Positions 8,909 to 33,919 of a stretch of 34,325 nt of DNA are shown here, in pieces (the stretch's first letter is position 1; the number at the start of each line of letters is the position of its first letter). Under the pieces are notes generated by a model, which had not been told where the DNA came from, ran no database searches, and saw nothing but the letters and a program-made list of their open reading frames with translations. Location of the stretch: assembly GCA_046759805.1 (NCBI GenBank), contig JBHICX010000001.1, forward strand, positions 1-34,325. Reading direction: 5' to 3'. The position numbers and the translations under genes are program-made. This stretch comes from Kiloniellales bacterium (GTDB lineage: Bacteria; Pseudomonadota; Alphaproteobacteria; JBHICX01).

Positions 8909-10090
8909 TTGACGGTGGTGCAGGCGGAGGCGGTGCGCCTCGGCCGGCCGCGGCCGGCAACGCTGTTCGGCCCTGGCGCGGTGGGGCGCTACGCCGAGCT
9001 GATCGCCGCCGAGGCGGTCGAGGTGGTGGTGGTGAACCACCCCTTGACCCCGATTCAGCAACGCAACCTGGAGCTCGCCTGGACGGCAAAGGTGGTCGAT
9101 CGCACCGGCCTCATACTCGAGATCTTCGGCGCCCGCGCGCGCACCCATGAAGGGCGCCTGCAAGTCGAGCTGGCGGCGCTCAGCTACCAGCGCAGTCGCC
9201 TGGTGCGCAGCTGGACCCACCTGGAGCGGCAACGCGGCGGTTACGGCTTCCTGGGGGGGCCGGGTGAATCCCAGCTCGAGATCGACCGCCGGCTGATCGA
9301 CCAACGGATCATCCACCTGAAGCGTGAGCTCAAGGCCGTGACCCGGACCCGTGCGCTGCATCGCCGGGCGCGCCGACAGGTGCCGAACCCGGTGGTGGCG
9401 CTGGTCGGCTACACCAACGCCGGCAAGTCGACCCTGTTCAACCGCCTGACCGGCAGCCGGGTGTTTGCCGATGACCGTCCGTTCGCCACCTTGGACCCGA
9501 CGATGCGGGCATTGGCCCTGCCTTCGGGTCGTCTGGTCATCTTGTCCGATACGGTGGGCTTCATACAGGATCTGCCGACCCAGTTGATTGCGGCGTTTCG
9601 CGCCACCCTGGAGGAGGTGCTGGAAGCCGACGTGATCGTCCATGTACGCGACGTGGCCCACCCGGACAGCGCGGCGCAGCGCGGCGATGTGCACAAGGTG
9701 CTGGCCGAGCTCGGCCTGCGACAGGTGATCGACGAGGACGGCCTGGTCGAGGTCTTGAACAAGGTGGACCTGTTGGACCGGTCGGCAGGCGATGCCTTGA
9801 CCAACAACGCCGGCCGACACTCGGACATGGTCGTCCTCTCGGCGCTGACCGGAGAGGGATGCCAGGCCCTGCTCGAGGCCCTGGACAGGTGGTTCTCGGT
9901 AGCACGCCGGGTGCTGAAGCTGACGGTGGACTTGAGCGACGGGGCCTCGCTCGCGTGGCTATACCACCACGGCGAGGTGTTGAGCCGGCGCGACGAAGGC
10001 CCGGTGGCACGCTTGCAAGTCGGACTCGACCCGGCCGATGCTGCCCGCTTCGAGCGTCGCATGGGGCGGCACCACCCAGGCGACCGATGA
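8909..10090 (+). CDS. hflX: GTPase HflX (coordinates give the minimal ORF; the true N-terminus is almost certainly upstream)
   Basis: HflX N-domain (IDRTGLILEIFGARARTHEGRLQVELAALSY, WTHLERQRGG.GFLGGPGESQLEIDRR). G1 GYTNAGKSTLFN, G3 DTVGF and G4 NKVD. HflX-like sequence (RALVLHPE...ESRLVEARALAGAIDL) continues in frame upstream to about 8798. Confidence 0.9.
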   Translation: MTVVQAEAVRLGRPRPATLFGPGAVGRYAELIAAEAVEVVVVNHPLTPIQQRNLELAWTAKVVDRTGLILEIFGARARTHEGRLQVELAALSYQRSRLVRSWTHLERQRGGYGFLGGPGESQLEIDRRLIDQRIIHLKRELKAVTRTRALHRRARRQVPNPVVALVGYTNAGKSTLFNRLTGSRVFADDRPFATLDPTMRALALPSGRLVILSDTVGFIQDLPTQLIAAFRATLEEVLEADVIVHVRDVAHPDSAAQRGDVHKVLAELGLRQVIDEDGLVEVLNKVDLLDRSAGDALTNNAGRHSDMVVLSALTGEGCQALLEALDRWFSVARRVLKLTVDLSDGASLAWLYHHGEVLSRRDEGPVARLQVGLDPADAARFERRMGRHHPGDR

Positions 10091-10305: not shown

Positions 10306-11136
10306 ATGATTCCCGACCTCGACAGGGTGAGTGCCATCGTCCGCGAGGCCGCCGCGGCGGAGGTCTTGCCGCGGTTCCAGGCGTTGCGTGACCAGGACGT
10401 CTGGCGCAAGGCGTCGGGCGAGGTGGTGAGCGTGGCCGACGTCGAAGCCGAAAGATGGCTCACCCGGCGGCTCTTGGACCTGCTGCCCGGCTCGATGGTG
10501 ATCGGCGAGGAAGCGAGCGCCGACCGCCCGGCGCTCTTGGATCAGGTGGGCCGGGAGGGGCCGGTATGGCTCATCGATCCGGTCGACGGTACCGGCAGCT
10601 TCATCGCCGGCAAGCCGGCGTTCGCGGTCGTGGTCGGCCTGCTGGCCCAGGGGCGTTGCCTGGCCGGGTGGATCCACGACCCGTTGGCGGACCGCATGGC
10701 GGTCGCTGCCGCCGCCGAGGGCGCCTGGCTCGACGGCGAGCGACTGCGGGTGGCCGCGCCGGCACCGCTCAGCGAGATGTCCGGCGTGCTGCACCTCGGC
10801 TGTTTCGACAAGCCCTGGCGGCAGCGCATCCGCGATCGCCAATCGCGGCTGGGCCGGATCGGCAACCGCGGCTGTGGCGCCCACGAATACATGGCGCTGG
10901 CCGCGGGGCGCCAGCACTTTGCGCTGTTCAGCGAGACCATGCCCTGGGATCACGCCGCGGGGGTGTTGATGCACCGCGAGGCCGGCGGCTTCGCGGCCCG
11001 CCTGGACGGCCGCGCGTACCGTCCAACCGACCATCGGGGCGGGCTCCTGCTGGCGCCGGACCCGGCCAGCTGGGAGGCGCTGCATGGGTTCCTGACGCAA
11101 CAGGAGAATGCGCCGGAGGGGCAGGAGGCGGGGTAG
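10306..11136 (+). CDS. Inositol monophosphatase / FIG-family phosphatase
   Basis: IMPase metal-binding motifs GEE (VIGEEAS) and WLIDPVDGTGSF. 276 aa. Confidence 0.8.
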   Translation: MIPDLDRVSAIVREAAAAEVLPRFQALRDQDVWRKASGEVVSVADVEAERWLTRRLLDLLPGSMVIGEEASADRPALLDQVGREGPVWLIDPVDGTGSFIAGKPAFAVVVGLLAQGRCLAGWIHDPLADRMAVAAAAEGAWLDGERLRVAAPAPLSEMSGVLHLGCFDKPWRQRIRDRQSRLGRIGNRGCGAHEYMALAAGRQHFALFSETMPWDHAAGVLMHREAGGFAARLDGRAYRPTDHRGGLLLAPDPASWEALHGFLTQQENAPEGQEAG

Positions 11137-11148
11137 GGGGCCGCGGGA

Positions 11149-11964
11149 TCAGTCCGGCCCCGTCTCGCGCTCTCTGCGTTTGGCCTGCCGCCACAGGGCC
11201 TCCATCTCGTCCAGGCTCGCCTCGTCGGGGGAGCGGCCGGCGGCGGCCAGCGCCGACTCGATGTAGGCGAAGCGGCGCTCGAACTTGGCGTTGCACCCGC
11301 GCAGCGCCGCCTCCGGGTCGATCCCCAGATGCCGGGCCAGATTGGCTGAGGCGAACAACAGATCGCCCACCTCGTCCTCCAATTGCGCGGCGGTGGCAGT
11401 GCCCGAGATTCCGGCGCGGAGCTCGGTCATCTCCTCCGCGATCTTGTCCAGCACCTGGATCGCCTGTGGCCAGTCGAAGCCAACCCGGGCCGCCCGCTGC
11501 TGCAGCTTGTCGGCGCGCGACAATGCCGGCAGCCCGAGCGGCACGTCGTCGAGCACGCCGGGTGGGCGTCCTTCACCCTGCGCCCGCGACCGGCGTTCCG
11601 CCGCCTTGTGCGCCTCCCAGGCGGCGGTCTGCCGGGCCGCGCTGTCGACCTCGGCGGTGCCGAAGACATGGGGATGGCGGTCCACCATCTTGTCGCAGAT
11701 CGTCGCCGCCACGTCGTCGAAGCTGAACGCGCCGGCCTCCTCGGCCATGCGCGCGTGGTAGACCACCTGCAGCAGCAGGTCGCCTAGTTCCGCGCGAAGC
11801 GCCTCGAGGTCAGCCCGGTCGATGGCGTCGGCCACCTCGTAGGCCTCTTCGATGGTATAGGGCGCGATCGACTTGAAGTCCTGCTCCTGGTCCCACGGGC
11901 AGCCCCCGACAGGGTCCCGCAGCCGCGCCATGATTTCGATCAGACGGTCGACGTTTCGGCTCAT
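11149..11964 (-). CDS. mazG: Nucleoside triphosphate pyrophosphohydrolase MazG
   Basis: Tandem MazG domains: GCPWDQEQDFKSIAPYTIEEAYEVADAI and EEMTELRA...EDEVGDLLFASANLARHLGIDPE. The start is placed at MSRNVDRLIEIMARL (ATG, complement of 11962-11964). The 45 upstream ORF-track codons look non-coding. Confidence 0.9.
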   Translation of the reverse strand: MSRNVDRLIEIMARLRDPVGGCPWDQEQDFKSIAPYTIEEAYEVADAIDRADLEALRAELGDLLLQVVYHARMAEEAGAFSFDDVAATICDKMVDRHPHVFGTAEVDSAARQTAAWEAHKAAERRSRAQGEGRPPGVLDDVPLGLPALSRADKLQQRAARVGFDWPQAIQVLDKIAEEMTELRAGISGTATAAQLEDEVGDLLFASANLARHLGIDPEAALRGCNAKFERRFAYIESALAAAGRSPDEASLDEMEALWRQAKRRERETGPD

Positions 11965-12469
11965 GGGATGACTCGGTTCATTTTGTCGGTGGGGGCCTGT
12001 TATAGCGAATTCGCAATAGCATGGGGGAGCGATCCTGCCGTTGCCGCAGCCCCGGAGGGCGGTTTCGACGGCGTTCCTGTGGCGACCGAAAAATTGCATA
12101 AGGGATATTATGGATAATCCTATTTAAGTCTTAATTATAAATCGTTATCGTCCTTAATTCACGTTGCAGATTAAAATTGCACGCTTATTCCGCTACATCC
12201 GGATAGAACTGGCAGCGCGATCGTTGGGCGGCGGGCTAAGCCATGACGCTGGCCACCACGCGCAGTCGACATTGTTGGCTAACCCGTCAAGGAACGGGCG
12301 CCGCCGGTCGGCGCCACGCAATCGCTCAGTATCCACCGGATACTTTGTCGGTATCACGTGCGCGGATACGGATGGGCCGGTTCTCCCGAGTGCACGGATC
12401 TGGCCTCCCTTGTCCGACAGCCGCCCGCGGTTCCGGACGCGAAATAACGCCAATCATTCATTGTACCGA

Positions 12470-12483
12470 TTGATTCACGTCAA
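12470..12483. promoter_or_regulatory. FixK/FNR-type box candidate, TTGATTCACGTCAA (TTGA-N6-TCAA)
   Basis: 9/10 match to TTGAT-N4-ATCAA and a perfect TTGA-N6-TCAA. Lies about 150-160 bp upstream of the 12632/12644 start, in a non-coding leader. Confidence 0.35.
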
Positions 12484-12631
12484 TGCGCCTGAACGGGTGC
12501 TGGTATACGAAGCATCTTGAAGAATTTGGATGGCCGAAAGGTATCGTTTGGAAGAATCTTGCTTCGTGCCTTGCCGGAGTTGCATTTTGTTGCAGGTCAT
12601 GTGACCGGATATTGTTGGAAAACGAAACATA

Positions 12632-13126
12632 GTGAGCTCAGCCATGTCGAGACATCGCATCATCGGCCTGGTCGGCGCGTTGATCGTCTGGCTTCTGGGA
12701 ACGTTTTCGGCCGCCGCATCACCGGGCGGTCCGAATTGGTCCCAGACGGTCGACGGCATGCTGGTCCACCTGGGAATTATGTCGACCCAGGTAATGAGGC
12801 AACACCCGGACCAATATCCTGAGCATTTCATCGAGGGGGAACCCCCAGCAGGCAGACACATGTACCACGTTCTGGTGACCGTTTTCGAGCGCTCCAGCGG
12901 CGAGCGCATTACCAATGCCGATGTAGAAATGCGGGTTTCACCGATTGGCCTTGCCGGTCGGCAAAAGCATCTTCATGCGATGTCAGTCCGCGGCGCGGCT
13001 TGTTATTGCAATTACTTCTACATGCCGCCCACGGATAGCTATCGGATCAGCGTGCAAATCCGTCGGCCGGGGGTGCCGGTGGTGGCCCGAGCGAAATTCC
13101 TTTACACGCACCACCGCGGGCCCTGA
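12632..13126 (+). CDS. Hypothetical exported protein (possibly a YtkA/FixH-like Ig-fold, unverified)
   Basis: Signal peptide MSRHRIIGLVGALIVWLLGTFSAAA|SP, with an alternative ATG start at 12644. The beta-rich pattern HMYHVLVTVFERSSGERITNADVEMRVSPIG...YRISVQIRRPG resembles small periplasmic metal-handling domains. No family assignment is possible by eye. Confidence 0.55.
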   Translation: MSSAMSRHRIIGLVGALIVWLLGTFSAAASPGGPNWSQTVDGMLVHLGIMSTQVMRQHPDQYPEHFIEGEPPAGRHMYHVLVTVFERSSGERITNADVEMRVSPIGLAGRQKHLHAMSVRGAACYCNYFYMPPTDSYRISVQIRRPGVPVVARAKFLYTHHRGP

Positions 13127-13265
13127 TCGAGAGCCTGACAGACGGGCAGCGGGCGGCTTTCACCAAGGTTGGTCGGGGCACGCATCCGGAGTTCGCACCG
13201 CAGCAAATGCCTTATGTCGAGGTGCGCCGGTGCGGCGCCTCCGGCCACAATGTCGTGTTGTCGTG

Positions 13266-13516
13266 GATCGCGAGGGTAAGCCGTGATTGTGTTTGCGCGC
13301 CGCGGTCAGGTGGTCGACCGTGGCCGCATGACTTCAGCAAGCGAAAGCCGTGACGCCGTCGGAGGTCCTGCCCTTTGACCGCGGAAATAGGAGCCGATTT
13401 CCCAGTTCCATTGGTACGACTCTTGCGGTCGCCGCGATTTACACCTCGATCACCATGCCGTCGTAGGCAGGCTCGACGCCGGGCAGACATTTGGCTGCCA
13501 GCCGGTCGAGTAGTCG
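13266..13516. repeat. Left copy of an imperfect ~250-bp direct repeat (partner at 18549-18797)
   Basis: By-eye alignment gives about 16 mismatches plus one 2-nt indel over ~250 nt (roughly 93% identity). Both copies are in the same orientation. Confidence 0.85.
13439..13516 (-). pseudogene. Orphan 3' fragment of the MBL-fold hydrolase gene (duplicate of the last ~25 codons of 18722-19489)
   Basis: Translates ...DRLAAKCLPGVEPAYDGMVIEV*, against ...DRLAAKCPPGVEPAYDGLVIEV* in the intact gene. Upstream of this the reading frame has no similarity to the MBL protein. Confidence 0.7.
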
Positions 13517-13606
13517 TCGCGCCCTTGCCGCGCCCGCCGGGCGGTCAGCTCCCGGTGGCGCTGCACCACACTGGTACGGGAGCGATGCGCGGTCGAGGCC
13601 ATGCCA

Positions 13607-13620
13607 TTGATGTAAATCAA
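13607..13620. promoter_or_regulatory. Perfect FNR/Anr/FixK-type box, TTGATGTAAATCAA
   Basis: Exact match to TTGAT-N4-ATCAA. AT-rich -10-like hexamers (GAAATA / TATTAA / TAATAA) lie 25-40 nt downstream. It is 133 nt upstream of the first cassette gene (13753). Confidence 0.5.
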
Positions 13621-13752
13621 TGCCGAACTTCCTTGTTGATGCTTGAAATATTAATAAAGGCTGTACCATTGCGCTGACGCGAACCGGCGGTGGGCCGGGA
13701 CGCGTAAGGGCGTTGGGCGAAGTCGCGTGACGTTAGGACGGTAGGCAGCGAC

Positions 13753-14106
13753 ATGAAGAGACGGTTTCTTCGCCGCCTGTTAGCCTGTCTCCTGGTGACC
13801 GCTCTCGTCACCGGCACGGGGGTGCCTGTGGCCATGGTCCAGGCCGGTCACGGTCACGGGGCAACGCCGGCCGACCAAGCTCAAGTAATGCCGGGCTGCG
13901 ATCCGGTCCAGGCGCTGGGCACGGGCTGCAAGTACTGCGCGCCGTGCGTTATGTTGTGTTGCGACGAGGTGATTGTCGCCGCCGCCCCCGCGCTCGAGCC
14001 CCCGCTGCCCGAACTCACGGTCGGTTTCGTCGACCGGACGCCGGGCGTCCGGCGTTCCATCGAGGCCAAGTTCCCTCGAGGTCCTCCCCATCCCTTCCAG
14101 GACTGA
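13753..14106 (+). CDS. Small secreted Cys-rich protein, DUF2946-like (tentative)
   Basis: Signal peptide MKRRFLRRLLACLLVTALVTGTGVPVAMVQA|GHGHG. Cys cluster CDPVQALGTGCKYCAPCVMLCC. Pro-rich tail ending ...FPRGPPHPFQD, reminiscent of the C.(Y/F)C ... PRAPP layout I remember for DUF2946. Confidence 0.6.
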   Translation: MKRRFLRRLLACLLVTALVTGTGVPVAMVQAGHGHGATPADQAQVMPGCDPVQALGTGCKYCAPCVMLCCDEVIVAAAPALEPPLPELTVGFVDRTPGVRRSIEAKFPRGPPHPFQD

Positions 14107-14307
14107 GACTTAGCGGCCGTTCCCGCAGGCCGCCGCAAGACCTCACAAAACACGGCATCTCCGCGGAACGGCGAGGTTGATCGCAGCATAGGCTGCTGTC
14201 GCGACCAACCGATGTCTCGGTCCGACTCGGCCCGCGCTCGGGCACGAGCCGGTCAAGGCATGTGCGAAATGACGTCGCGGCCGCAGCAACGGTAACGGAG
14301 GGAAGAG

Positions 14308-15135
14308 ATGGTTAGGGAAGATCCTGTCAACGGGACCCGGGACAGTCGTCAATCTCACCTGACGACGCGACGGGGTTTCGTCACCGGCCTCGGCTTTGGC
14401 GTGGTGAGTCTTTACGGTCTGTGGGCCGCTTACGGGGCCGCGCCGACCAGCCTCAAATTCCTGTCCGGCGCCGCGTCAGGCGGCATGGGAGCCGCAGGGC
14501 ACGGCCACGGCGGTCACGGCGGCGGAGGGATGTCGCGCGAGGAGTTCAACCGCCTGGCCGACGAGTTCTTCGAGGCCAACGCGCTTCCCGACGGCAGCGT
14601 GAAGCCGGTCCGTCGTAGGGTCGCGGCGATCTCGGGCCAAGCCCATGAGGGTCACGCAGATGAGCCGGAGATGTCCGCAGCCAAAGAGCACGAACACGGG
14701 CACGAGGCGGAGGCCCACGACCGTGGCGCTCGCGAGCCGAGGATGTCCATGGCCGAAGAGCACGAGCACGGGCCCGAGGCCGAAGCGCACGAACACGGTG
14801 CGGCCCCGCCGAGCATGTCCATGGCTGAAGAGCACGAGCACGGAGACGAAGAAGGGCCGATCGAGGTCTACGTCAGGGCCTCAAGGTACGGCTACGAGCC
14901 CGATGTGCTGCGGCTGGAGCCCAATATCCCCTACAAATTCAGGATGATGGCCGTCGATGCGGACCACGGCGTCTCAATCAGTATGCGCATGGGCAGCCAC
15001 ATGATGCGCTGCCGAGCGAGAGTTCTGACCGAAGCGATCCTGATGTTCACGGCGCCCGGCGAGTACCTGTGCTACTGCACCGTTTATTGCGGTGAGGGCC
15101 ATGACATGATGATGGGCACGATCGTCGTGGCATAG
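14308..15135 (+). CDS. CuA-type cupredoxin subunit II of a B-family-like heme-copper oxidase, with a Tat-like signal/anchor and a His-rich repeat linker
   Basis: The C-terminus PGEYLCYCTVYCGEGHDMMMGTIVVA aligns with ba3 CbaB PGEYRIICNQYCGLGHQNMFGTIVV. The full CuA ligand set is present: DADHGV His, then C-x3-C-x3-H-x2-M at 15076-15111. N-terminal TRRGFVTGLGFGVVSLYGLWAAYGA. RBS GGAGGGAAGAG. Confidence 0.88.
   Translation: MVREDPVNGTRDSRQSHLTTRRGFVTGLGFGVVSLYGLWAAYGAAPTSLKFLSGAASGGMGAAGHGHGGHGGGGMSREEFNRLADEFFEANALPDGSVKPVRRRVAAISGQAHEGHADEPEMSAAKEHEHGHEAEAHDRGAREPRMSMAEEHEHGPEAEAHEHGAAPPSMSMAEEHEHGDEEGPIEVYVRASRYGYEPDVLRLEPNIPYKFRMMAVDADHGVSISMRMGSHMMRCRARVLTEAILMFTAPGEYLCYCTVYCGEGHDMMMGTIVVA
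14671..14843 (+). repeat. 72-bp in-frame tandem repeat (about 2.4 copies) encoding MS(A/M)A(K/E)EHEHG(H/P)EAEAH..GA..P..
   Basis: Units start at 14671, 14743 and 14815 (ATGTCC...GAGCACGA(A/G)CACGG). They lie inside the linker of the cupredoxin gene. Confidence 0.8.
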
Positions 15136-15158
15136 CCCGCGACCGGAGGGGACGAGGC

Positions 15159-16829
15159 ATGACTGAGAGCAAGTTGGTCGAAGGCCTGAAGCGCCTGCCC
15201 GGCGGCGACAGGGCGCTGCTCGACGGCTTTGTCGCCATGGCCGTGCTCAGCCTGGGGCTCGGTCTCGTCTACGGCGCGCTGACGGCCTTCGCCCGCGCCG
15301 GCTTCATCACCCTGGAGCCCGAGGTCGCGTATCCGACGCTGACCCTCCACGGGGTCACGATCTTCTTCTACTGGCTCTACTTCGCCCAGGCGGGCCTGGT
15401 CCTCATCCTCGCCTGTGTGTACACCGAGGGCGCCAAGCGGCTGGCGTGGAGCCCGCTGGCGTGGCTCGGGCTTGGCCTCATGGTCGCGGGATTCGCCTTG
15501 AGCGAGCTGATGCCGATCATGGGCGCGGTCATGCTGTACGACGGCCAGCCGGAGCTGATCGGCTACGAGATGACGGAGGGCGGCCTGTTCTACGTCGGCT
15601 ACATCCTTCTCGGCCTGGGACTGTTTGTGGTCGGCGTATCCAGCATTTCCACCGCCCTCAAACCGCGCTTTGAAGGGAAGATCGAGTCCTGGTCATCGGT
15701 CAGCTTCGCCAGCGTCGCCTGGGCCGGCCTGCTCATGGTGAGCGCCATGGCCGCGATCAACGCCTTCCTGCCGGCGGCCTGGTGGGCATTCGGTTTCGGA
15801 CCAGCGCCATCGGGCTATACCATGAGCTGGCACGTGCTGTTCCACAATGTCCATTACCTGCCGCTGATGGCCACGGTGGTGCTGTGGTATGTGCTGATGG
15901 ACGAGCTGGCCGGCGTCGAGTCGATCTTCGGGCGCCGGTTTTCCAAGATCGTCTTCGCCCTCTATTTGATCTTCGTGCCGCCGACGTCGCTGTACCACAT
16001 GTTCCTGGAACCCAACCTCGCGGACTCGGTGAGGATACTGGGATCGTTGTTGTCGTTGTTCATCGGCGTGCCGACCGTGCTCGTCTTTTTGATCATCATC
16101 GCTTCGCTGGAGTCGCACGCCAGGGCGCACGGCGCCCGCGGCCTGTTCGGCTGGGTGCGCATGCTGCCCTGGCGCAATCCGGCGATGGCCGCGATCGGCA
16201 TGGCGGTGGTCAACCTGGCCCTCGGGGGCGCCTTTTCCTTCGTCCTGATCCAGGAGAAGCTGGCGCCGCTGTTGAGCGACACCTTCTTCGTCCCGGGCTA
16301 CTTCCACTTCCTGACCCTGGGCACGGTGACGCTCACCTTCATCGCCGCGTTCATGTACGTGATTCCGGGCCTGACCGGCCGTCAGCTGTGGAACCCCTCG
16401 CTGCTCGCCAAGCTGCCGTACATCGCGACCGTCGGCCTGCTGATCTTCGGCGGCGCCGGCATCCTCGCCGGCTACATGGGCGTGCCGCGGCGCCTGTTCG
16501 ACGTGAGCTACGAGGGCCGGGCGCCGGAGATCTGGCAAACGCTGATGTTCGTCGTCGGCATCGGCGCCGTGCTCATGACCGCCGCATTGGCGGCCTACGT
16601 CTTCGGCCTGGTTAGGACACTGTTCGGGCGCCCGAGCGAGGCCGGGGCCGAGACGGCCAACCTCGCGGCCGTGTCGTGGGGCGGGATCAGCGTCGGCCGC
16701 CAGGCGGCCTGGGTCGGGCCGCTGTCCGTGCTCGTCCTCATCGCCGCCATGTACGCGTTCACCGCGGTCGGCTTCGAGCTCATGCAAAGCCTGCCGATCG
16801 TGGCGACTGGCGGAGGCGGTGGACATTAG
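15159..16829 (+). CDS. Heme-copper oxidase superfamily subunit I, B-family (ba3)-like, with non-canonical active-site ligands
   Basis: Long collinear similarity to ba3 CbaA as I remember it: LTLHGV; ASLE..A...GARGLFGW.R.LPW.NPA; FVPG.FH...VTLT; LPNLTG/IPGLTG; VPRR. About 12-13 hydrophobic helices. Sits 23 nt after subunit II. See the findings for the Y279 and Y381 substitutions. Confidence 0.9.
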   Translation: MTESKLVEGLKRLPGGDRALLDGFVAMAVLSLGLGLVYGALTAFARAGFITLEPEVAYPTLTLHGVTIFFYWLYFAQAGLVLILACVYTEGAKRLAWSPLAWLGLGLMVAGFALSELMPIMGAVMLYDGQPELIGYEMTEGGLFYVGYILLGLGLFVVGVSSISTALKPRFEGKIESWSSVSFASVAWAGLLMVSAMAAINAFLPAAWWAFGFGPAPSGYTMSWHVLFHNVHYLPLMATVVLWYVLMDELAGVESIFGRRFSKIVFALYLIFVPPTSLYHMFLEPNLADSVRILGSLLSLFIGVPTVLVFLIIIASLESHARAHGARGLFGWVRMLPWRNPAMAAIGMAVVNLALGGAFSFVLIQEKLAPLLSDTFFVPGYFHFLTLGTVTLTFIAAFMYVIPGLTGRQLWNPSLLAKLPYIATVGLLIFGGAGILAGYMGVPRRLFDVSYEGRAPEIWQTLMFVVGIGAVLMTAALAAYVFGLVRTLFGRPSEAGAETANLAAVSWGGISVGRQAAWVGPLSVLVLIAAMYAFTAVGFELMQSLPIVATGGGGGH

Positions 16830-16849
16830 GTTCCGTGAGGAGGTAATCC

Positions 16850-17074
16850 ATGACGAAAGACGCCTGGCTGTTCGCGATCGTGTTCCTGGTCTGGCTGGTC
16901 CTGTCGGTCCTGTACTACACGGTGCCCATGATCTACATGCCGACCACGGGGCGCGTGTGGGGCCTGGGCGCGCTCCTGTTCCTGGTGCTCGCGGCCGTCG
17001 TTCTGTACGCGCAGCACAAGGGAAAGAGCCGGCGCGCTGCCGCCGAGTCCGAAGTGGCAGAGAGCCGAAAGTAA
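16850..17074 (+). CDS. Small two-TM membrane protein (candidate accessory oxidase subunit)
   Basis: Strong RBS GAGGAGG 7 nt upstream of the ATG. Two hydrophobic helices (AWLFAIVFLVWLVLSVLYYTV and VWGLGALLFLVLAAVVLYAQ) and a basic tail. Sits 20 nt after subunit I. Confidence 0.65.
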   Translation: MTKDAWLFAIVFLVWLVLSVLYYTVPMIYMPTTGRVWGLGALLFLVLAAVVLYAQHKGKSRRAAAESEVAESRK

Positions 17075-17265
17075 CCCCGAGAAGCGGAGGTCGTGGGGAA
17101 CGGTCGGCCGCCCAGGACGGCCGGTCCTGGGGGGGTGATCTACATCAATGACGGATCTGCCTGGAGGCGGATGAATGACAGGCTGGGGCCAAGTCCATAG
17201 GCAACGGATGGGACGAACGGCCCGCCGCCGACGCTATCGGCGTGCCCCCAGGGGAGAAGACGGGG

Positions 17266-18258
17266 ATGTCTCACTGGCATGTGAGCTTTGGCGGCGGCGT
17301 CCGCCTCGTTGTGACGGCCGTCGCGGCGGCCGCGGCCATGCAGGTCGCGATGGCGTGGGCGGACCACGCCCAGGGTCCGGTGAATGTGATCGGCGAACCG
17401 GAGTCGGCGGCAACAGTCGGCACCGACGACCCTGGGGCGGGCCAGGAGCCGAGGCTTCGCCTGGGCATGCCGGTCATGGACTCCGAGAACGGCATGCGGC
17501 TGTTCGCCGGGATGGGCTGTGTCGTGTGTCACGCGATCAACGGGGTGGGCGGGCACGATGCCAAGAACCTCGATGCCCACTCCACGCACCCCGTGGTCAG
17601 TGCCTTCGATTTCTCCGCCAAGATGTGGGCCATCCCCGCAGACATGGCGGGGGACCGGAAACGGGCGCTCGGTCATCGATTCGCATTCAGCGGCGATGAA
17701 CTGGCCGACCTCGCCGCCTTCGTGGGCGACGACGACCAGCAGCACAGGTTCACCGAAGCGCACATTCCACCCGAGATCAGGAAGCTGATGCGTCACAGCC
17801 ACGGCGGCAAACAGGCCCATCAGGACGAGCTGAGGAATTTCCAGCCCGAAGAGGTCTACATGGTGGCGCCGATGATGGAGCCCGAGGAGGGCATGCGGCT
17901 ATTCGTCAGCAAAGGCTGCGTCGTCTGTCACGCGATCAACGGCGTGGGCGGAGACGATGCCAAGAACCTCGATGCCGAGAGTCTCGCTGCCGGGAACCCA
18001 GACGCCCACTCCGGCCACACCTTTTTGAATCCTTTCGATTTCGCCGCCAGCATGTGGTCCGTGAGCCCGGGCATGATCGAGGCTCAGCACCGTATCGCGG
18101 GCCATCGGTTCCTGTTCACGGCCGTAGAGCTGTCCGACATCATCGCCTTCGTTCACGACGGCGAGCAGCAGAGAAATTTCACCGAGGCGCACGTTCCGCC
18201 CGAAATGAAGACCATCATCGACCAGACCCGCGCCGGCCAGTCGGCCGATCCGGACTAG
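17266..18258 (+). CDS. Periplasmic dihaem c-type cytochrome (two tandem class-I-like domains)
   Basis: Two CxxCH sites in near-identical contexts (GMGCVVCHAINGVGGHDAKNLDA and SKGCVVCHAINGVGGDDAKNLDA), each followed by FDF(S/A)A(K/S)MW as candidate Met ligands. Signal peptide MSHWHVSFGGGVRLVVTAVAAAAAMQVAMAWA|D. The ORF-track start at 17242 is also possible. Confidence 0.85.
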   Translation: MSHWHVSFGGGVRLVVTAVAAAAAMQVAMAWADHAQGPVNVIGEPESAATVGTDDPGAGQEPRLRLGMPVMDSENGMRLFAGMGCVVCHAINGVGGHDAKNLDAHSTHPVVSAFDFSAKMWAIPADMAGDRKRALGHRFAFSGDELADLAAFVGDDDQQHRFTEAHIPPEIRKLMRHSHGGKQAHQDELRNFQPEEVYMVAPMMEPEEGMRLFVSKGCVVCHAINGVGGDDAKNLDAESLAAGNPDAHSGHTFLNPFDFAASMWSVSPGMIEAQHRIAGHRFLFTAVELSDIIAFVHDGEQQRNFTEAHVPPEMKTIIDQTRAGQSADPD

Positions 18259-18548
18259 CCCGACCGCGCCGCGGGGCTGATTTTCAGTGCATTTGTCGCG
18301 GAGTTTGGCCCTGCGGGCGAGAGAGGATTCCATTTCGGTCGCGATGGCAGATAAGCCAGCAATCGAAAGCGTGGCAAGGACCATTGCGCAGATGGCTGTG
18401 CGAGCGATTCCGGTAACGCTATGGTTCGACATGGCTTACCTCCAGTCTCCACGTTTCGGTCCCGAATCCCCGTCGGTCATGGTGGGTCATTCGCCTATCA
18501 TGGCGAACGGTACGCGGCATCGAGGTAGGTCAACTTGGGAGTCGCCAC

Positions 18549-18797
18549 GATCGCGAGGGTAAGCCGTGACTGTGTTTGCGCGCCGCGGTCAGGTGGTCGA
18601 CCGTGGCCGCATGACTTCAACAGGCCAAAGTCTTGACGCCGTCGGAGGCCCTGCTTTTTGACCGCGGAAGTATGAGTCGATTTCCCAGTTCCATTGGTAC
18701 GACTCTTGCGGTCGCCGCGATTTACACCTCGATCACCAGGCCGTCGTAGGCAGGCTCGACGCCGGGCGGACACTTGGCCGCCAGCCGGTCGTAGTCG
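18549..18797. repeat. Right copy of the ~250-bp direct repeat (partner at 13266-13516)
   Basis: Covers about 173 nt downstream of the MBL gene plus its last ~25 codons. See the left copy. Confidence 0.85.
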
Positions 18798-19489
18798 AGG
18801 CTCGTGTTCATATGGGTTAGCACGGCCCGACCTGGCCGCAGGCGCTCGATCCAGCCAAGAGTCTTCTCCAGATGGGCATGGGTTGGGTGCGGCGCCTCGC
18901 GCAGGCAATCGACGATCCATAGGCCGATGCCGTCCAGCGCTTCGAAGGCCGCCTCCGGAAGCTCGACCAGGTCGGTCGAATAGGCCAGTTGCCCGAACCG
19001 GAACCCGAGCGTGGCGCCCGGAAAGCCGTGGTCCTGTTCGAACGGGCGGATGTCGATGTCCCCGACCGAGAATGGGCCGTCAATGATATGCGGCTCCACC
19101 AACGGCCCGTAGAAGTCTGATTCGCCTTCCATTCCCTCGACCGCGTACCCGAAGCGTTGGCGGATCTCCGTGAGCGTCCCGGCGTCGGCGTGAATCGGTA
19201 TCGGCCGCCCCGTGAGGCGCTTCATTTGCCGCAGGTCGTCGATGCCGTGCAGGTGGTCGGCATGGGCATGGGTGTAGAGCACCGCGTCCAGCCGGGTGAC
19301 CCCCGCAGCCAAGAGCTGCCGGCGCAGGTCCGGCGTGGTATCGACCACCAGGGTGGTATTGGCCTCTTGCACCAGGATCGAGGCTCGGAGCCGCCGGTTG
19401 CGCGGGTTCGCGGGATCGCAGTCGCCCCAGTCGCCGCCGATCTGCGGCACCCCGCCGGAGCCGCCGCAGCCCAGGATGGTCACCCGCAT
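18722..19489 (-). CDS. MBL-fold metallo-hydrolase (PhnP/YcbL-like)
   Basis: MRVTILGCGGSGGVP... and the HxHxDH motif YTHAHADHLHG. 255 aa. Lies directly downstream of tatD, as in many alphaproteobacteria. Confidence 0.85.
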   Translation of the reverse strand: MRVTILGCGGSGGVPQIGGDWGDCDPANPRNRRLRASILVQEANTTLVVDTTPDLRRQLLAAGVTRLDAVLYTHAHADHLHGIDDLRQMKRLTGRPIPIHADAGTLTEIRQRFGYAVEGMEGESDFYGPLVEPHIIDGPFSVGDIDIRPFEQDHGFPGATLGFRFGQLAYSTDLVELPEAAFEALDGIGLWIVDCLREAPHPTHAHLEKTLGWIERLRPGRAVLTHMNTSLDYDRLAAKCPPGVEPAYDGLVIEV

Positions 19490-28031: not shown

Positions 28032-28118
28032 GCGCCCGCCGCCGATCGCGGGCCCGATCCGGTCGGGCGGCGGCTATTGGGCTCCGTCGCCTGCCTCCCC
28101 GGCCGCAGCCTCGGGGTT

Positions 28119-28760
28119 CTACAGACCCGCCGCTGCCGCGGCAATCGCGTCCCTGGTCGCCTCATCCATCTCGATGCCGAGGAGATCGTTCACGGCATCC
28201 ACGACGGTGCTGTCGATGTCCTTGTTGGCCGCCGCCGCCAGGGCCTCCGCCGCCGCCTGGATGTCCACCACCTCGGCGCCGGCCGCGGCGCCGTAGGCGG
28301 CAACCATCCCCACGGCGGAGTGCGCGGCTGCCCTCTCTTGCGCCCGCGCCGAGGCATGCGCCGCGTTCAGCCGTCCCAACGACGACGCCGAGATCCCATG
28401 GTTGTGATGGTGGCTTTGATGAGTCCCCGGTGCGCCGCCGTGGCTGGCACCATGGCTACCGAGGTGGCCGACGCCACCATGGCCGCCGCTACCGTGGCCG
28501 CTACCGTGGCCGCTACCGTGGCCGCTACCGTGGCCCGCCACGCCACCATGGCCGCCGCTACCCTGGCCGCCGCCGTGGCCACCACCGTGGCCGCCACCAC
28601 CGCCGCCGCCTTTACCGCCCTTGGCGTACGCCGGCTCGAAGGCTGGCAGGTCGATGACCGCCGCAACCAGCGGGCCTGCCACCAGGCCAGCCGCACCCAG
28701 CATCGCGGCGATCAGCGGCGTCCGCAAGGGTCGCCAGGCGTCGTCGTGTTTCATGTCCAT
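28119..28760 (-). CDS. Secreted or membrane-anchored Gly/His-repeat protein of unknown function
   Basis: N-terminal hydrophobic segment LRTPLIAAMLGAAGLVAGPLVAAV. About 90 aa of (G)nH / GHGS repeats, then HQSHHHNHG. An Ala-rich C-terminal domain (LGRLNAAHASARAQERAAAHSAVG...). The competing plus-strand ORFs are Arg/Pro-rich frame artefacts. The start could be 28760 or 28754. Confidence 0.55.
   Translation of the reverse strand: MDMKHDDAWRPLRTPLIAAMLGAAGLVAGPLVAAVIDLPAFEPAYAKGGKGGGGGGGHGGGHGGGQGSGGHGGVAGHGSGHGSGHGSGHGSGGHGGVGHLGSHGASHGGAPGTHQSHHHNHGISASSLGRLNAAHASARAQERAAAHSAVGMVAAYGAAAGAEVVDIQAAAEALAAAANKDIDSTVVDAVNDLLGIEMDEATRDAIAAAAAGL
28486..28533. repeat. Perfect 12-bp tandem repeat x4 (CCGCTACCGTGG), coding (GHGS)n on the minus strand
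   Basis: Four identical consecutive 12-mers were read directly from the sequence. Confidence 0.85.
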
Positions 28761-28912
28761 CCCCGATTGGTGTCGAAGCAGTGTCGGCGGCATGCTAACG
28801 GATGTTCCATCGAATGTCTCGCATCACGCGTGCGGCCACGGGCAACGAGCGGCGTCTTCTTTACGCCGCGCAGCTCCTGTATCGTGGCCCGATCAATCGG
28901 GCGGTGAACACC

Positions 28913-31372: not shown

Positions 31373-32268
31373 TCGGCGCGGCGCCTCATCGGCGTTGGGC
31401 TTGAGGCACTGCATTGACTTGCCGGCCGCGGCTGCCACCAGAGCACAATAGCAGTCTGGAACAGCCGCGACCTTACAGCCGCCGCCGACCATCCCTGACC
31501 CGGTGCAGCTGCACGAGCAACCGGACGAATCGGAACCGGGTTCGCGAACAAGTCATCCTTGCACCTGGTCGCCTTCGCCCAACGCGACTCACTAGTTCAT
31601 GTGTCGTCCCAACGAACGGTTATACGTCCCTGTTTTCCTGGACACTCGACACCTTGCGACCGGTCACCAGGTAGCAGTGACAAGCTGAACTTGCAACTGA
31701 ACAGATTATTCGGTTGCCTGGGTCAGATATAGGCCTATCGCGTTGATACTAAATCTCTAACGCCGCCAACTTGTCCAATTAATCCACCGGACAACTCATC
31801 TCACAAAAGGCTATAGAAAGTTTAGGTAAGTTTCACTAATGGCGTAGAAAATCATGTGAGATGTTGAAAGATCTGCAGATTTTATTGGTAAAATCGTTGG
31901 CAGTCGAAGGGTTTCAAATGACAGGTATGGTTGTTAGGAGGCCGCATGAGGATAACTTGCGCGCACCGGCCGTCATTTCGGTCGGCCGAAATCTCAATTG
32001 TGTGCTTGAAAACAGTTACTTCCACCCTGGTCATTGCACCGCGCGGCAACTGCACAAGCCGCAAGGCCGACGTCGGCACCGACAATACAGGCAAGGACCT
32101 GCGAATCGAGCTCACTGGCTGCTGTCGTCGGTTCGCGCGAGTTCCCCGCGGCCAAGAGAGGGTCTCATAGCGCTGGCTTAGCGACCCTGTGGGCGTTGTC
32201 TCTTTTAACGTCCGCGTACGATCCGCGATGGGGTTGCGCCTCGCGAGGCCGAAGCGGGAGGCGCGGGG

Positions 32269-32358
32269 TGGCGGATGGGGTGGGATTCGAACCCACGAGG
32301 GGGCTCACCCCCTGCCGGTTTTCAAGACCGGTGCCTTCAACCGCTCGGCCACCCATCC
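32269..32358 (-). tRNA. tRNA-Ser (anticodon UGA), CCA encoded
   Basis: The reverse complement folds as acceptor GGATGGG/CCCATCC, D-arm GGCCGAGCGGTTGAAGGC, anticodon stem-loop CCGGT-CTTGAAA-ACCGG, a long variable arm CAGGGGGTGAGCCCCCTC, T-arm GTGGG-TTCGAAT-CCCAC, discriminator G, then CCA. Confidence 0.93.
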
Positions 32359-32542
32359 GTTGCTTGCATGTCAACCACTTGCGACGCGGACCGCCCAAGC
32401 CGCGCCGGCGACCGGCGTCATCGCCGCGTCTTCTAGCGCGACCGGCGGGGCGGCGTCCACAGGGTCTGTCCCATTCCCTGCCTTCACGCGATCAAAGGCG
32501 AGCGATCGCGCGGCGTCTGCGCAACCGCTGTGCCTCACTCCC

Positions 32543-33856
32543 TCATCGGTTCTTTTCAGGACCAATGATCAGTCCCCGTTTCGCGAGATCCGCCACGATG
32601 GTGCCGACGTCGTGTTCTATCTGTGCTTCAGGAACCGTGGGGAATGCCTTTTGCAGCACGTCCATGGCGTCTTGCAACCGAATCGGTTGGTCGAGCAACC
32701 GCCACAGCGCCGCGCCAACAAAATTGAGATGATAGATCGCCTCGCCGGCAGAACTGACCAGGAACAGCTCGTCACCCACCCGACGCTCGTGGATGCCCGA
32801 GGCGCGCCGGAGATCACCCGTCACCGCGCCGTCCGGCGACTTCCCACTGACGGATGCGCGTGCGGAACGCTCCGGTACGCAGGATCGGCGGCGCGCGGGC
32901 CAGCCCTTGAACCTTTGCCTGAGCAACTCTGCGGCTTCGTCGGCGGCGCCGTAGCGCAGCCTGAAACATTGTGCGGCTTCAACCAAGTTGTGAAGACGCT
33001 CGAGAATATCGGTGGCCGGAACCTTGCCGGCGAAGTTCTGCAAAATCACTCGCTTCAGCATCTCGCTCCTATTGACCGGCGTCAACTCCGGCCGGCCGCC
33101 CGGTTCGCGACGTAGAAGGACGAACGCGCCGATCGGGGCTTCCTTGCCCTTGACCGCCAGGTTCGCAGCGTCAACCTCCAGGTAAATGAAGCGTTGGTTG
33201 CGTAGCCCCGAGTGGCGGCGCACGTAATTCCGGAACTCGGCCGCGACGCCGTCCGGTAGTGGGCGCCGCAGTCGCGGCAGGACGCCGGGAGCCACGGCCG
33301 TGTTGGCGCGGCTTTTGATCGGCAGGACGTCATCGGCGTAAACCCGCATGCCGGCCGCTGCCAGGTGACCGGAAAGCAGGCTTTTTCCCGCCTCGTAGCG
33401 GCTCGGAAAGACGACAAGCCGGCCAGCGAACTCGGCCGCGGCGGCGTGCAGGTGGCACAACAGCGACGGATCGGCCGCCACCGACGACTTGATCAAATCG
33501 ACGATGAAGCTGCAGACCGCATCGACCTCATTGCGGTACACGACCATTGACGACCGCCAATACGACTCCAGGCCGTACCCCTTGGAGGTCTTGCGGATGG
33601 TTATGATTGGCGGCGTTTCAGGTGCAGCCGAGACGTCGCGACACCGCCAGCCGCGGAGTACCGCGGCGATGGGTGCCGCCAAAATATCGCAGCCAATCAG
33701 GGCGACCGGTCGGGTCAGCGGTTCGAAAAGCAGCAGCATCGCAGACATCGTATCGGACAGGCCCGGCGCAGTCACGCCGCTGGGGCCGCCAACGTCAAGG
33801 ATCGCTGGCGGCCTCGAACGAGATGATAGTAGCGTAGGCGCCGAGCAGACCGGCAC
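32543..33856 (-). CDS. Fusion protein: HprK-related (P-loop) kinase-like domain plus a C-terminal PqqD/RRE-like domain
   Basis: The central LHAAAAEFAGRLVVFPSRYEAGKSLLSGHLAAAGMRVYADDVLPI resembles the HPr-kinase C-terminal P-loop region. The C-terminal ~90 aa (VGDELFLVSSAGEAIYHLNFVGAALWRLLDQPIRLQDAMDVLQKAFP...IEHDVGTIVADLAKRGLI) has the PqqD-family pattern. The start is uncertain, with alternative ATGs at 33748 and 33739. Confidence 0.6.
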   Translation of the reverse strand: MPVCSAPTLLSSRSRPPAILDVGGPSGVTAPGLSDTMSAMLLLFEPLTRPVALIGCDILAAPIAAVLRGWRCRDVSAAPETPPIITIRKTSKGYGLESYWRSSMVVYRNEVDAVCSFIVDLIKSSVAADPSLLCHLHAAAAEFAGRLVVFPSRYEAGKSLLSGHLAAAGMRVYADDVLPIKSRANTAVAPGVLPRLRRPLPDGVAAEFRNYVRRHSGLRNQRFIYLEVDAANLAVKGKEAPIGAFVLLRREPGGRPELTPVNRSEMLKRVILQNFAGKVPATDILERLHNLVEAAQCFRLRYGAADEAAELLRQRFKGWPARRRSCVPERSARASVSGKSPDGAVTGDLRRASGIHERRVGDELFLVSSAGEAIYHLNFVGAALWRLLDQPIRLQDAMDVLQKAFPTVPEAQIEHDVGTIVADLAKRGLIIGPEKNR

Positions 33857-33919
33857 CGCCGCGTCAACAATGTCCGTGGCCCCGCCCGAGCCGCCCGAGC
33901 CGCCGCGGCGACGGTCCGG

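Follow-up and report, generated by a model that had tools for sequence, protein, structure and literature searches.

A 251-nt direct repeat beside dif in a Kiloniellales bacterium: a probable recombination scar flanking a predicted haem-copper oxidase operon

A site-specific element classically leaves a duplicated gene 3' end, with the intact gene on one side of the insert and an orphan fragment at the opposite end. Phage 21 and e14, for example, integrate at the 3' end of icd and supply a replacement gene end. IMEX elements occur at dif sites, and such elements or other variable DNA at dif and the replication terminus include the CTX phage and the gonococcal genetic island. Orphaned 3' gene ends are also found at Rhs, CDI and T6SS effector loci, where they have been attributed to homology-facilitated illegitimate recombination (HFIR) (PMC5361080), a process for which that article cites de Vries & Wackernagel (2002) and Prudhomme et al. 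(2002).

The stretch of DNA analyzed here (the window, 34,325 bp) is from a Kiloniellales bacterium. It carries two copies of a direct repeat between mazG and an MBL-fold hydrolase gene (MBL):

11149-12099, minus strand: mazG (nucleotide pyrophosphohydrolase), the left housekeeping flank (Pfam MazG, 4.2e-38, domain from residue 73)
12091-12118, plus strand: predicted chromosomal dif, with XerC arm AAATTGCATAA, central GGGATA and XerD arm TTATGGATAAT
13266-13516, minus strand: left (orphan) repeat copy, with a 173-nt segment (13266-13438) and 78 nt from the MBL 3' end (13439-13516)
18549-18797, minus strand: right repeat copy, with the 173 nt downstream of MBL (18549-18721) and the last 25 MBL codons including the stop (18722-18797)
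18722-19489, minus strand: intact MBL-fold hydrolase gene (PhnP-like, 255 aa), the right housekeeping flank (Pfam Lactamase_B_2, 3.9e-36), followed on the same strand by tatD and metG

The two copies form a direct repeat of 251 nt with 92.8% identity (16 mismatches and 1 gap, blastn E-value: 9.7e-105), and concordant alignments were obtained with MAFFT, a repeat finder, a local aligner and blastn. A first-pass annotation of this DNA had counted about 93% identity by eye and had assigned to each copy the last ~25 MBL codons plus 173 nt, with an intact gene at the right copy only; this is confirmed, and the similarity proved neither shorter nor weaker than had been read, extending over the full 251 nt. 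In the ungapped core, 13266-13508 pairs with 18549-18791 (227 identities in 243 nt, 93.4%), beyond which a 2-nt indel and seven matching bases (CGACTAC) carry the repeat to its ends at 13516 and 18797. Similarity stops abruptly at both edges. The copies lie 5283 nt apart, start to start, and no other repeat in the window approaches them in length: the second-best blastn match covers only 13-15 nt (E-value about 0.5). Perfectly identical blocks of 61 nt (covering the MBL stop codon) and 49 nt are found within it. The left copy, which has a 2-nt insertion and a Pro to Leu change, is an orphan because non-MBL sequence adjoins its gene-proximal side, whereas the right copy continues into an intact MBL gene. 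No Rfam match (E-value ≤ 1) and no tRNA were found in the 173-nt segment, and no terminator-like site was found within the repeat. A structured RNA in the 173-nt segment was considered and rejected (single-sequence fold z-score of -1.4, and a two-copy consensus fold without compensatory pairs).

The window is an entire metagenome contig, and strain-level chimerism inside the identical blocks is therefore possible. This, together with the length of those blocks, which exceed typical assembly k-mers, would favour an assembly artefact joining two strains. We consider such an artefact highly improbable: unique sequence lies on both sides of each copy, the orphan junction shares just a 7-nt match after a 2-nt indel, which is too short for a k-mer join, and the 5-kb operon between the copies is continuous and repeat-free. 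Chimerism could swap alleles within a copy, but it could not create the topology.

The 28-nt motif at 12091-12118 (11+6+11) is intergenic, is present as a single copy in the window and fits the proteobacterial dif consensus. Using a position weight matrix built from the sites of 31 relatives, it scores 34.7-39.6 bits, compared to 4.4 for the next-best site in the window, and it matches the published Agrobacterium dif at 21 of 28 positions (PMC2731167). Judged by its sequence, it is a canonical XerC/XerD dif, the chromosome dimer-resolution site, with its XerD arm oriented toward the insert and MBL. An equivalent dif in the same orientation is found downstream of MBL in 34 of 80 relatives' loci and is no more than 220 nt away in 22 of those. 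The sign of the GC skew flips across the ancestral mazG/MBL junction and, because dif is kept at this sign change, the locus is assigned to the replication terminus. Because the XerC arm overlaps the mazG ORF at its first ATG, translation of mazG probably begins at a later codon; the N-terminal residues of the ORF show no conservation with L083, the closest relative found. KOPS-like GGGNAGGG motifs were also observed, and all three point toward dif (weak evidence). The position of the insertion at dif and the terminus, in a spacer that is variable within this bacterial order, had been overlooked in the earlier annotation.

Relatives were compared using 80 species-representative loci, with 84 MBL-bearing loci in a DNA-level scan. 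A layout that recurs among them is MBL, then a canonical dif within about 0-220 nt, then mazG. MBL directly adjoins mazG in many loci, and MBL, dif and mazG are adjacent in L083, L002, L023, L077 and others. In L083, the closest relative found (MBL 85% aa identity; none of the ~84 loci is closer to the window), the MBL stop codon is followed by 17 nt, dif and then the first ATG of the mazG ORF. Empty sites, which had been suggested as a check on the insertion, are thus present in relatives such as this one. A single copy of the MBL 3' end was found in 83 of the 84 loci scanned at the DNA level (the exception being L034) and, likewise, in every one of the 80 species-representative loci but one. 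The comparison alters the earlier picture in two respects. First, the extra DNA is not only the ~5-kb cassette between the repeats: relative to L083, all of 12119-18721 (6.6 kb) is extra, including the 173-nt part of the repeat. Second, these 173 nt had been taken as the gene's own downstream region, yet both of the closest relatives lack them and have dif after the MBL stop codon instead. An insert of 6.6 kb, rather than just the 5.3 kb between the repeats, implies at least two events or two alleles. The spacers flanking dif carry ordinary accessory genes that vary between relatives and no mobile-element genes, which points to recombination-driven turnover. No recombination breakpoint was found inside MBL or tatD, as sliding-window identity to L083 and L084 shows no sharp break.

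The extra DNA is organized as follows:

12119-13265, no strand: first extra segment, from dif to the left repeat, missing in L083 and L084; AT-rich DNA comes first, followed by an FNR-type box (12470-12483) and by orf164
12632-13126, plus strand: orf164, a conserved secreted protein of about 160 aa
13517-14307, plus strand: oxidase operon leader, with a predicted FNR/FixK-type box TTGATGTAAATCAA (13607-13620) and orf117
13753-14106, plus strand: orf117, Cys-rich, with a signal-peptide-like N-terminus
14308-18258, plus strand: B-family-like haem-copper oxidase operon (Pfam COX1, 1.3e-41; Cytochrom_C)
14308-15135, plus strand: oxidase subunit II, with a CuA motif (C-x3-C-x3-H-x2-M, read from the translation) and a His-rich extension
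15159-16829, plus strand: oxidase subunit I (best PDB matches Thermus thermophilus ba3, E-value about 1e-31)
16850-17074, plus strand: 74-aa membrane protein
17242-18258, plus strand: dihaem cytochrome c
18259-18548, no strand: spacer from the operon to the right repeat, with a minus-strand ORF start (ATG at 18432) preceded by GGAGG

Subunit I keeps the H-x3-Y motif, which comprises the CuB His and the cross-linked Tyr (HNVHY, aligned to HPIVY of ba3). Nitric-oxide reductase (NOR) families are defined by loss of the active-site Tyr (PMC11214002); because this residue is retained, a reading of the cargo as a NOR (eNOR, sNOR or gNOR) was ruled out. From its motifs, the cargo is a B-family haem-copper O2 reductase that is predicted to be controlled by an FNR box. 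In L081 and L082, the operon is likewise preceded by an FNR/FixK-type box (at 9210 and 363, respectively), and about 0.003 such boxes would be expected by chance in the window (calculated from base composition). The operon shows 81-84% nt identity to those of L081 and L082. Similarity to L082 ends at 18270, and the minus-strand ORF start at 18432 may be what is left of a gene truncated after its 5' end. In the first extra segment, orf164 has 656 homologous clusters (full HMMER scan), and 12461-13126 is 75% identical at the nt level to L088, where the context differs. The GC skew of the insert is opposite to that predicted from its replichore position, consistent with acquired DNA. The operon is found at unrelated loci in L081, L085 and L086, and no flanking repeats were found at any of the three; it is therefore regarded as cargo and not as a self-mobile unit. 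A plasmid search with the 5.5-kb region returned weak subunit I matches on Azospirillum chromids and nothing else.

No large ORF of the window has a Pfam match to an integrase or transposase, in agreement with the first-pass annotation. A transposon or insertion sequence was rejected as the source of the repeat: there is no transposase, no inverted repeats were found at the insert ends, and the duplication is 251 nt as opposed to the expected 2-15 bp. No viral-contig relatives were identified with an MBL-based viral scan or with a 22-mer from the repeat, which was also absent from metagenome contigs. An orf164-based metagenome scan was empty, and exact matches to the window's MBL and COX1 proteins were not found.

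These searches bear on the possibility that a site-specific element targeted the MBL 3' end and brought a replacement gene end, its integrase having since been lost or acting in trans and the repeats being attL and attR. The duplicated gene end counts for this explanation, as do the 61-nt identical block across the stop codon and the orphan MBL 3' fragment in L034, a second and independent case that brackets one small gene. As with phage 21 and e14 at icd, the gene is intact by way of a slightly diverged 3' end that would be element-borne, and the orphan is at the other junction. Unlike those elements, however, the window has no integrase, its orphan is away from the ancestral downstream DNA and its homology continues well past the gene end. 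Specifically, no integrase or recombinase gene is found in the window or adjacent to the L034 duplication, the orphan is separated from the ancestral dif by 173 nt plus about 1.1 kb of extra DNA, and the homology reaches 173 nt into non-conserved non-coding DNA. Furthermore, the orphan fragments begin at different MBL positions (-78 nt in the window and about -100 nt in L034), the cargo is a single operon that is repeat-free at its other sites, and the viral-contig searches were negative. A tblastx comparison of the L034 downstream region with other loci gave noise only. Based on these results, we consider a site-specific element quite unlikely.

The absence of an integrase could also be explained if an IMEX had been integrated at dif by the host XerC and XerD. 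In favour of this, the insert starts immediately outside the XerD arm of a canonical dif, and it resembles IMEX in being directly beside dif, at the GC-skew switch, with no integrase of its own (for dif biology, see PMC2731167). It differs in that the flanking repeats are not Xer sites, but an MBL gene end, and in that the window has one dif-like site: no second site or half-site was found in the window, whether at 13266, 13516 or 18549 or beside the MBL stop. Relatives with inserts were found, and none has a second dif. We regard integration of this kind as exceedingly improbable.

Mismatches between the repeat copies are not evenly distributed. Eleven of the 16 lie inside 58 nt, giving 19% divergence there and about 2.7% elsewhere (p=0.0025). 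Evenly spread changes would be expected of an orphan decaying in place; this clustering fits copies that diverged in separate genomes under the same constraints, each serving an MBL gene. In the coding part of the repeat, the alignment contains two private changes per copy and six differences from L083 that are common to both; in this comparison, the two copies appear to behave as sister alleles. The mosaic could alternatively have come from gene conversion between copies that were duplicated in place. The oxidase segment would in that case have been inserted once into a resident MBL-173-orf164 spacer, and break repair or template switching, possibly caused by fork collision or over-replication at the terminus, would have copied 251 nt onto both sides; the copies would later have diverged and been partly homogenized by gene conversion. 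The location in the terminus/dif region, the absence of a recombinase and the similar number of private coding changes per copy agree with this, and a divergent patch between near-identical blocks is the expected trace of partial conversion. Three observations count against it. First, with 2.7% divergence outside the patch and 19% inside it, a freely decaying orphan should not change more slowly than a copy serving a gene unless conversion is invoked. Second, divergence of 7-19% implies an age at which relatives should share the duplication, but it is shared by 0 of the ~84 loci (none of which is above 85% aa identity). Third, we know of no bacterial insertion pathway that regularly makes target duplications of ~250 nt. 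Duplication in place is accordingly judged unlikely, if still credible.

A 251-nt repeat that is 7% diverged and reaches 173 nt past the stop codon has the look expected of homologous DNA, unlike a short att core or the duplication of a target site. We read the repeats as a scar of recombination rather than as a device; most likely, the operon was added through ordinary recombination with a related bacterium's DNA, with no mobile element involved. As to the specific events, we give about an even chance to a history in which one homologous crossover and one illegitimate join (by Campbell integration or HFIR) merged two spacer alleles beside dif. The ancestral order would have been metG-tatD-MBL-(short spacer)-dif-mazG at the terminus, and in the lineage of the window this spacer, from the MBL stop codon to the XerD arm, would have gained accessory DNA. 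Two versions of this spacer would have arisen in related lineages, both opening after MBL with a 173-nt segment of identical origin; the first would have run on into the orf164 module and the second into the FNR-regulated oxidase operon. DNA with one version would then have entered a cell holding the other. Homologous exchange may have taken place in the shared MBL/173-nt DNA or at a point upstream of it, within the conserved genes, while an illegitimate join at 13516/13517 would have attached the far end of the incoming DNA 78 nt inside the resident MBL gene. The two spacer versions would thereby have come to lie in tandem, with MBL still intact and the resident 3' end displaced and orphaned. 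The parental alleles would be MBL-173-orf164-dif lacking the operon and MBL-173-operon lacking orf164. No collection searched yielded either of them, so the two-allele history is one that we infer; we likewise deduce which way the DNA was transferred and what kind of join was made. The proposed illegitimate junction (13509-13516) has the 7-nt match after the 2-nt indel.

The same product could have been formed by a circularized fragment through a single Campbell crossover in the 251-nt homology, since a linear fragment with one homologous and one illegitimate join gives a result identical to that of circle integration. The first-pass annotation had proposed a Campbell-type or duplicative insertion. 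The insertion scar and the empty sites support the insertion, and the anatomy fits a single crossover; nothing, however, shows a circular element. As in Campbell integration, direct repeats of homology length bracket the insert, and the event would be reversible by recombination between them. In contrast to Campbell integration, the window has no replicon, circle or vector-like gene, and a circle would first need an illegitimate join.

The merging of two spacer alleles has its nearest parallel in the Rhs, CDI and T6SS orphans. In both situations a conserved gene provides the homology anchor, a new gene end and its cargo come in and the old 3' end is pushed downstream, where it forms a direct repeat, and no recombinase gene is involved. 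The window differs in that the gene encodes a housekeeping MBL hydrolase rather than a polymorphic toxin, a respiratory operon makes up the cargo, there is one orphan, the homology includes 173 nt of non-coding DNA and the site is beside dif. The independent orphan in L034, which also has no recombinase gene next to it, speaks for our preferred reading as well. HFIR is rare in experiments (PMC5361080), which counts against that reading. A broader proposal is that the dif-adjacent spacer in Rhodospirillales acts as a recombinase-independent landing pad, where foreign operons would be captured, and the adjacent MBL end duplicated, through events specific to the terminus (fork collision or over-replication, or dimer-resolution-linked breakage), making the window and L034 products of one recurrent process. 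We consider this very unlikely.

Taken alone, the repeat is an ordinary trace of gene acquisition; its added value comes from its context. The MBL-mazG junction is a conserved position of dif in many Rhodospirillales, and the locus is easily recognized, so that it lends itself to the study of accessory-operon turnover at the terminus without integrases. The window shows that insertion can reach right up against dif. The accessory operon here encodes a B-family oxidase for low oxygen, as suggested by its predicted FNR box. With their perfect blocks of 61 and 49 nt, the repeats could plausibly recombine with each other and delete the cassette, and the two copies could thereby permit reversible loss of the oxidase operon.

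Non-housekeeping DNA of ~6.6 kb lies between mazG and the gene for an MBL-fold hydrolase (MBL), as delineated by GC3 analysis and Pfam searches. The features are as follows.

Left of mazG, plus strand: ntr genes, trkA and others, then hflX and an inositol monophosphatase gene
11149-12099, minus strand: mazG
12091-12118: predicted dif, AAATTGCATAA-GGGATA-TTATGGATAAT (weight matrix)
Extra DNA, from dif toward MBL: AT-rich stretch; FNR box and orf164; left repeat; operon leader (FNR box, orf117); oxidase operon; 290-nt spacer; right repeat
14308-15135, plus strand: oxidase subunit II (cupredoxin, CuA motif, His-rich extension)
15159-16829, plus strand: oxidase subunit I, COX1 family (Pfam)
Between subunit I and cytochrome c, plus strand: 74-aa membrane protein
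17242-18258, plus strand: dihaem cytochrome c
18722-19489, minus strand: MBL, 255 aa (Pfam)
Right of the extra DNA, minus strand: MBL, tatD, metG, holB, tmk and dacC, in that order

The MBL protein is full length by comparison with thousands of homologues. No large ORF of the window matched an integrase or transposase family in Pfam, in agreement with the first-pass annotation. Elsewhere in the window, 12-nt tandem units (GCTACCGTGGCC-like) at 28443-28592 fall within two ORFs lacking Pfam matches (28077-28907, plus strand; 28119-28793, minus strand) and probably encode a Gly/His-rich repetitive protein. A segment of lower GC (about 0.61) at 31400-33900 carries a tRNA-Ser(TGA) gene (32269-32358), beside which an integrase was sought and not found, and an ORF of 437 aa whose C-terminal domain is PqqD.

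Scanning one genome per species with the MBL protein yielded 80 loci, at amino acid identities of at most 65%. MBL is directly followed by mazG in many of these, and in others 1.5-8 kb lies between them. Among database proteins the nearest relative is that of L083 (85% amino acid and about 85-90% nucleotide identity), which supplies the empty-site comparison that the first-pass annotation had proposed: its MBL stop codon is only 37 nt from the first ATG of the mazG ORF. The string TCCATAATATCCCTTATGCAATTT, common to L083 and the window (12117-12094), is by its sequence a canonical XerC/XerD dimer-resolution (dif) site. Using a weight matrix built from the sites of 31 relatives, the site at 12091-12118 scores 35-40 bits, compared to 4.4 for the runner-up position in the window, and it agrees with dif sequences described for Alphaproteobacteria (PMC2731167). 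A dif-like site was found downstream of MBL in 34 of the 80 loci as well as in L083 and L084, the two closest relatives; the XerD arm is toward MBL in every locus with a site, and in 22 loci the site is ≤220 nt from the MBL stop. GC skew is positive as far as MBL and negative past it, gene orientation switches where the skew does, and all three GGGNAGGG motifs in the window are directed toward dif (weak evidence). Based on the dif site and these three features, the window is predicted to span the replication terminus, and the predicted ancestral order is MBL-(short spacer)-dif-mazG. Many Rhodospirillales share the conserved linkage MBL-dif-mazG, with variable accessory genes flanking dif.

The first ATG of the mazG ORF (12097-12099) sits within the XerC arm of dif. 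As the first ~20 codons differ from L083 and the Pfam domain begins at residue 73, the true start is probably further downstream. The 9-mer AAAATTGCA (12090-12098), which spans the XerC arm's outer part, recurs ~80 nt away (12173-12181) in the AT-rich stretch adjoining the XerD arm; either coincidence or the remnant of an ancient Xer-site rearrangement could explain it.

Relative to L083, all of 12119-18721 is extra, including the 173-nt non-coding part of the repeat. GC skew across the insert is positive and its genes run against the direction in which a fork should travel on that side of dif; orientation and skew oppose those of all neighbouring housekeeping genes. The orf164 product belongs to a family of conserved secreted proteins (about 160 aa, 656 clusters), and its module is 75% identical at the nucleotide level to a contig with different surroundings (L088). 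Spacers flanking dif in relatives encode ordinary proteins unrelated to one another (GNAT acetyltransferases, carbonic anhydrase, HAD hydrolase, MFS transporter, TauD, GGT and MCP), and no integrase was found in them. From this gene content, the MBL-dif-mazG spacers can be classified as a variable accessory-gene spot beside dif. Because dif was discovered next to the insert, we considered an element integrated there by host XerC/XerD (IMEX); this fails because neither the insert nor its junctions contain a second dif-like site or half-site, and no second dif was found in relatives with inserts. The lack of a transposase and of terminal inverted repeats, together with the 251-nt length of the duplication, excludes a transposon.

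The oxidase operon lies between the two repeat copies on the plus strand. Subunit I is nearest to T. thermophilus ba3 and retains the H-x3-Y motif. By the published criterion separating O2 reductases from new NO reductase families (PMC11214002), its sequence looks like that of a B-family O2 reductase and, with the motif retained, not like that of a new NO reductase family. Two 72-nt tandem units in subunit II (14641-14784) encode a His/Glu-rich extension (HEHGxEAEAH-like), and the cytochrome c gene contains an internal haem-domain duplication (17469-17976; 109 nt at 84% identity, 399 nt apart). Upstream of the operon is a perfect FNR/FixK-type box, TTGATGTAAATCAA (13607-13620), and equivalent boxes precede the oxidase operons of relatives. 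Such boxes (TTGAT-N4-ATCAA and close variants) were located at 13607-13620 and 12470-12483 in the window, at 9210 in L081 and 363 and 3247 in L082 (both oxidase-operon relatives) and at 1483 in L088, being placed 5' of the oxidase operon and 5' of orf164. Their presence suggests that the orf164 module and the operon are under low-oxygen or NO-responsive control. In L081, L085 and L086 the three-gene core of the operon occupies other, unrelated sites, with neither flanking repeats nor mobile-element genes, and nucleotide similarity to L082 ends at the operon edges; the operon is therefore cargo rather than a self-mobile element. An ORF from ATG 18432 (minus strand), with GGAGG ahead and a signal-peptide-like N-terminus, runs antisense into the cytochrome c 3' end. 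It has no homologue among the loci; possibly the arrival of the operon truncated a gene and left this 5' stump.

The repeat copies align over 243 ungapped nt (13266-13508 and 18549-18791) with 227 identities (93.4%; MAFFT, a repeat finder, a local aligner and blastn concur). Past a 2-nt indel, seven extra matches extend them to 13516 and 18797, for a total of 251 nt, 16 mismatches and one gap (E-value: 1e-104); no other pair in a whole-window repeat comparison approaches this. Given the MBL coordinates (18722-19489, minus strand), the right copy comprises the last 25 codons of MBL and the 173 nt that follow the gene. The left copy contains the same 78+173 nt and is an orphan, as its gene-proximal edge abuts unrelated DNA. 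Coordinates, ~93% identity and the orphan/intact description had been read correctly in the first-pass annotation. Its interpretation as an integration scar stands in part: the repeats are a scar left by recombination, and of a known type, but in alignments the 173-nt segment has no counterpart 3' of MBL in L083 or L084. An Rfam search, a single-sequence fold and a two-copy consensus fold gave no evidence of structured RNA in this segment.

One homologous exchange plus one illegitimate join, merging two versions of the MBL-dif spacer, would yield the observed anatomy, a reading that we hold with roughly even confidence. Two versions sharing MBL and the 173-nt segment would have met; they would part ways at 13265/18548, with the novel joint at 13516|13517. 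Whether a circularised fragment entered by Campbell crossover or a linear one by homology-facilitated illegitimate recombination, the product would be identical. Rhs, CDI and T6SS loci likewise have orphaned 3' gene ends, for which a similar explanation has been given (PMC5361080). Mismatches are strongly clustered, with 11 of the 16 within 58 nt (p=0.0025; divergence of 19% in this patch versus about 2.7% elsewhere), while an orphan duplicated in place and decaying freely should not cluster them, barring gene conversion. Within the aligned coding part, two changes are private to each copy and six differences from L083 are common to both; the copies thus behave as sister alleles, which also argues against duplication in place, an origin we consider unlikely. 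Together, clustering and the sister-allele pattern favour divergence in separate genomes; for scale, the MBL genes of the window and L083 diverge by 27% at four-fold sites.

An integrase-type island inserted in the MBL 3' end would account for both the intact gene and the orphan. It is improbable, somewhat more so than duplication in place, for four reasons: the integrase gene is absent, the orphan is not contiguous with ancestral downstream DNA, homology extends 173 nt into non-conserved non-coding DNA and viral contigs carry no relative. Because a complete metagenome contig makes up the window, assembly chimerism could have exchanged alleles within the identical 49-nt and 61-nt blocks; as it is unable to generate the repeat/orphan topology, we consider it very improbable as the origin. 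Neither parental spacer allele was found in any collection searched (proteins, metagenome contigs), and so for the merger of two spacer versions we infer which way DNA was transferred, how old the event is and what kind of joint was made.

A second, independent orphan was identified in L034, a Geminicoccaceae MAG, where a 92-nt MBL 3' fragment (88% identical; copies at 10666-10757 and 11473-11564) is found 807 nt 3' of the intact gene. The two copies enclose one gene for a cNMP-binding protein, and a ParDE (ParD/ParE-like) pair comes next; no recombinase, integrase or dif was found in the vicinity. The L034 fragment begins about 9 codons further upstream than that in the window, a difference that speaks against a fixed att core and favours recombination with its anchor in a conserved gene. 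The main interest of the scar is the site itself, a conserved, variable spacer by dif, where Rhodospirillales chromosomes have their terminus.
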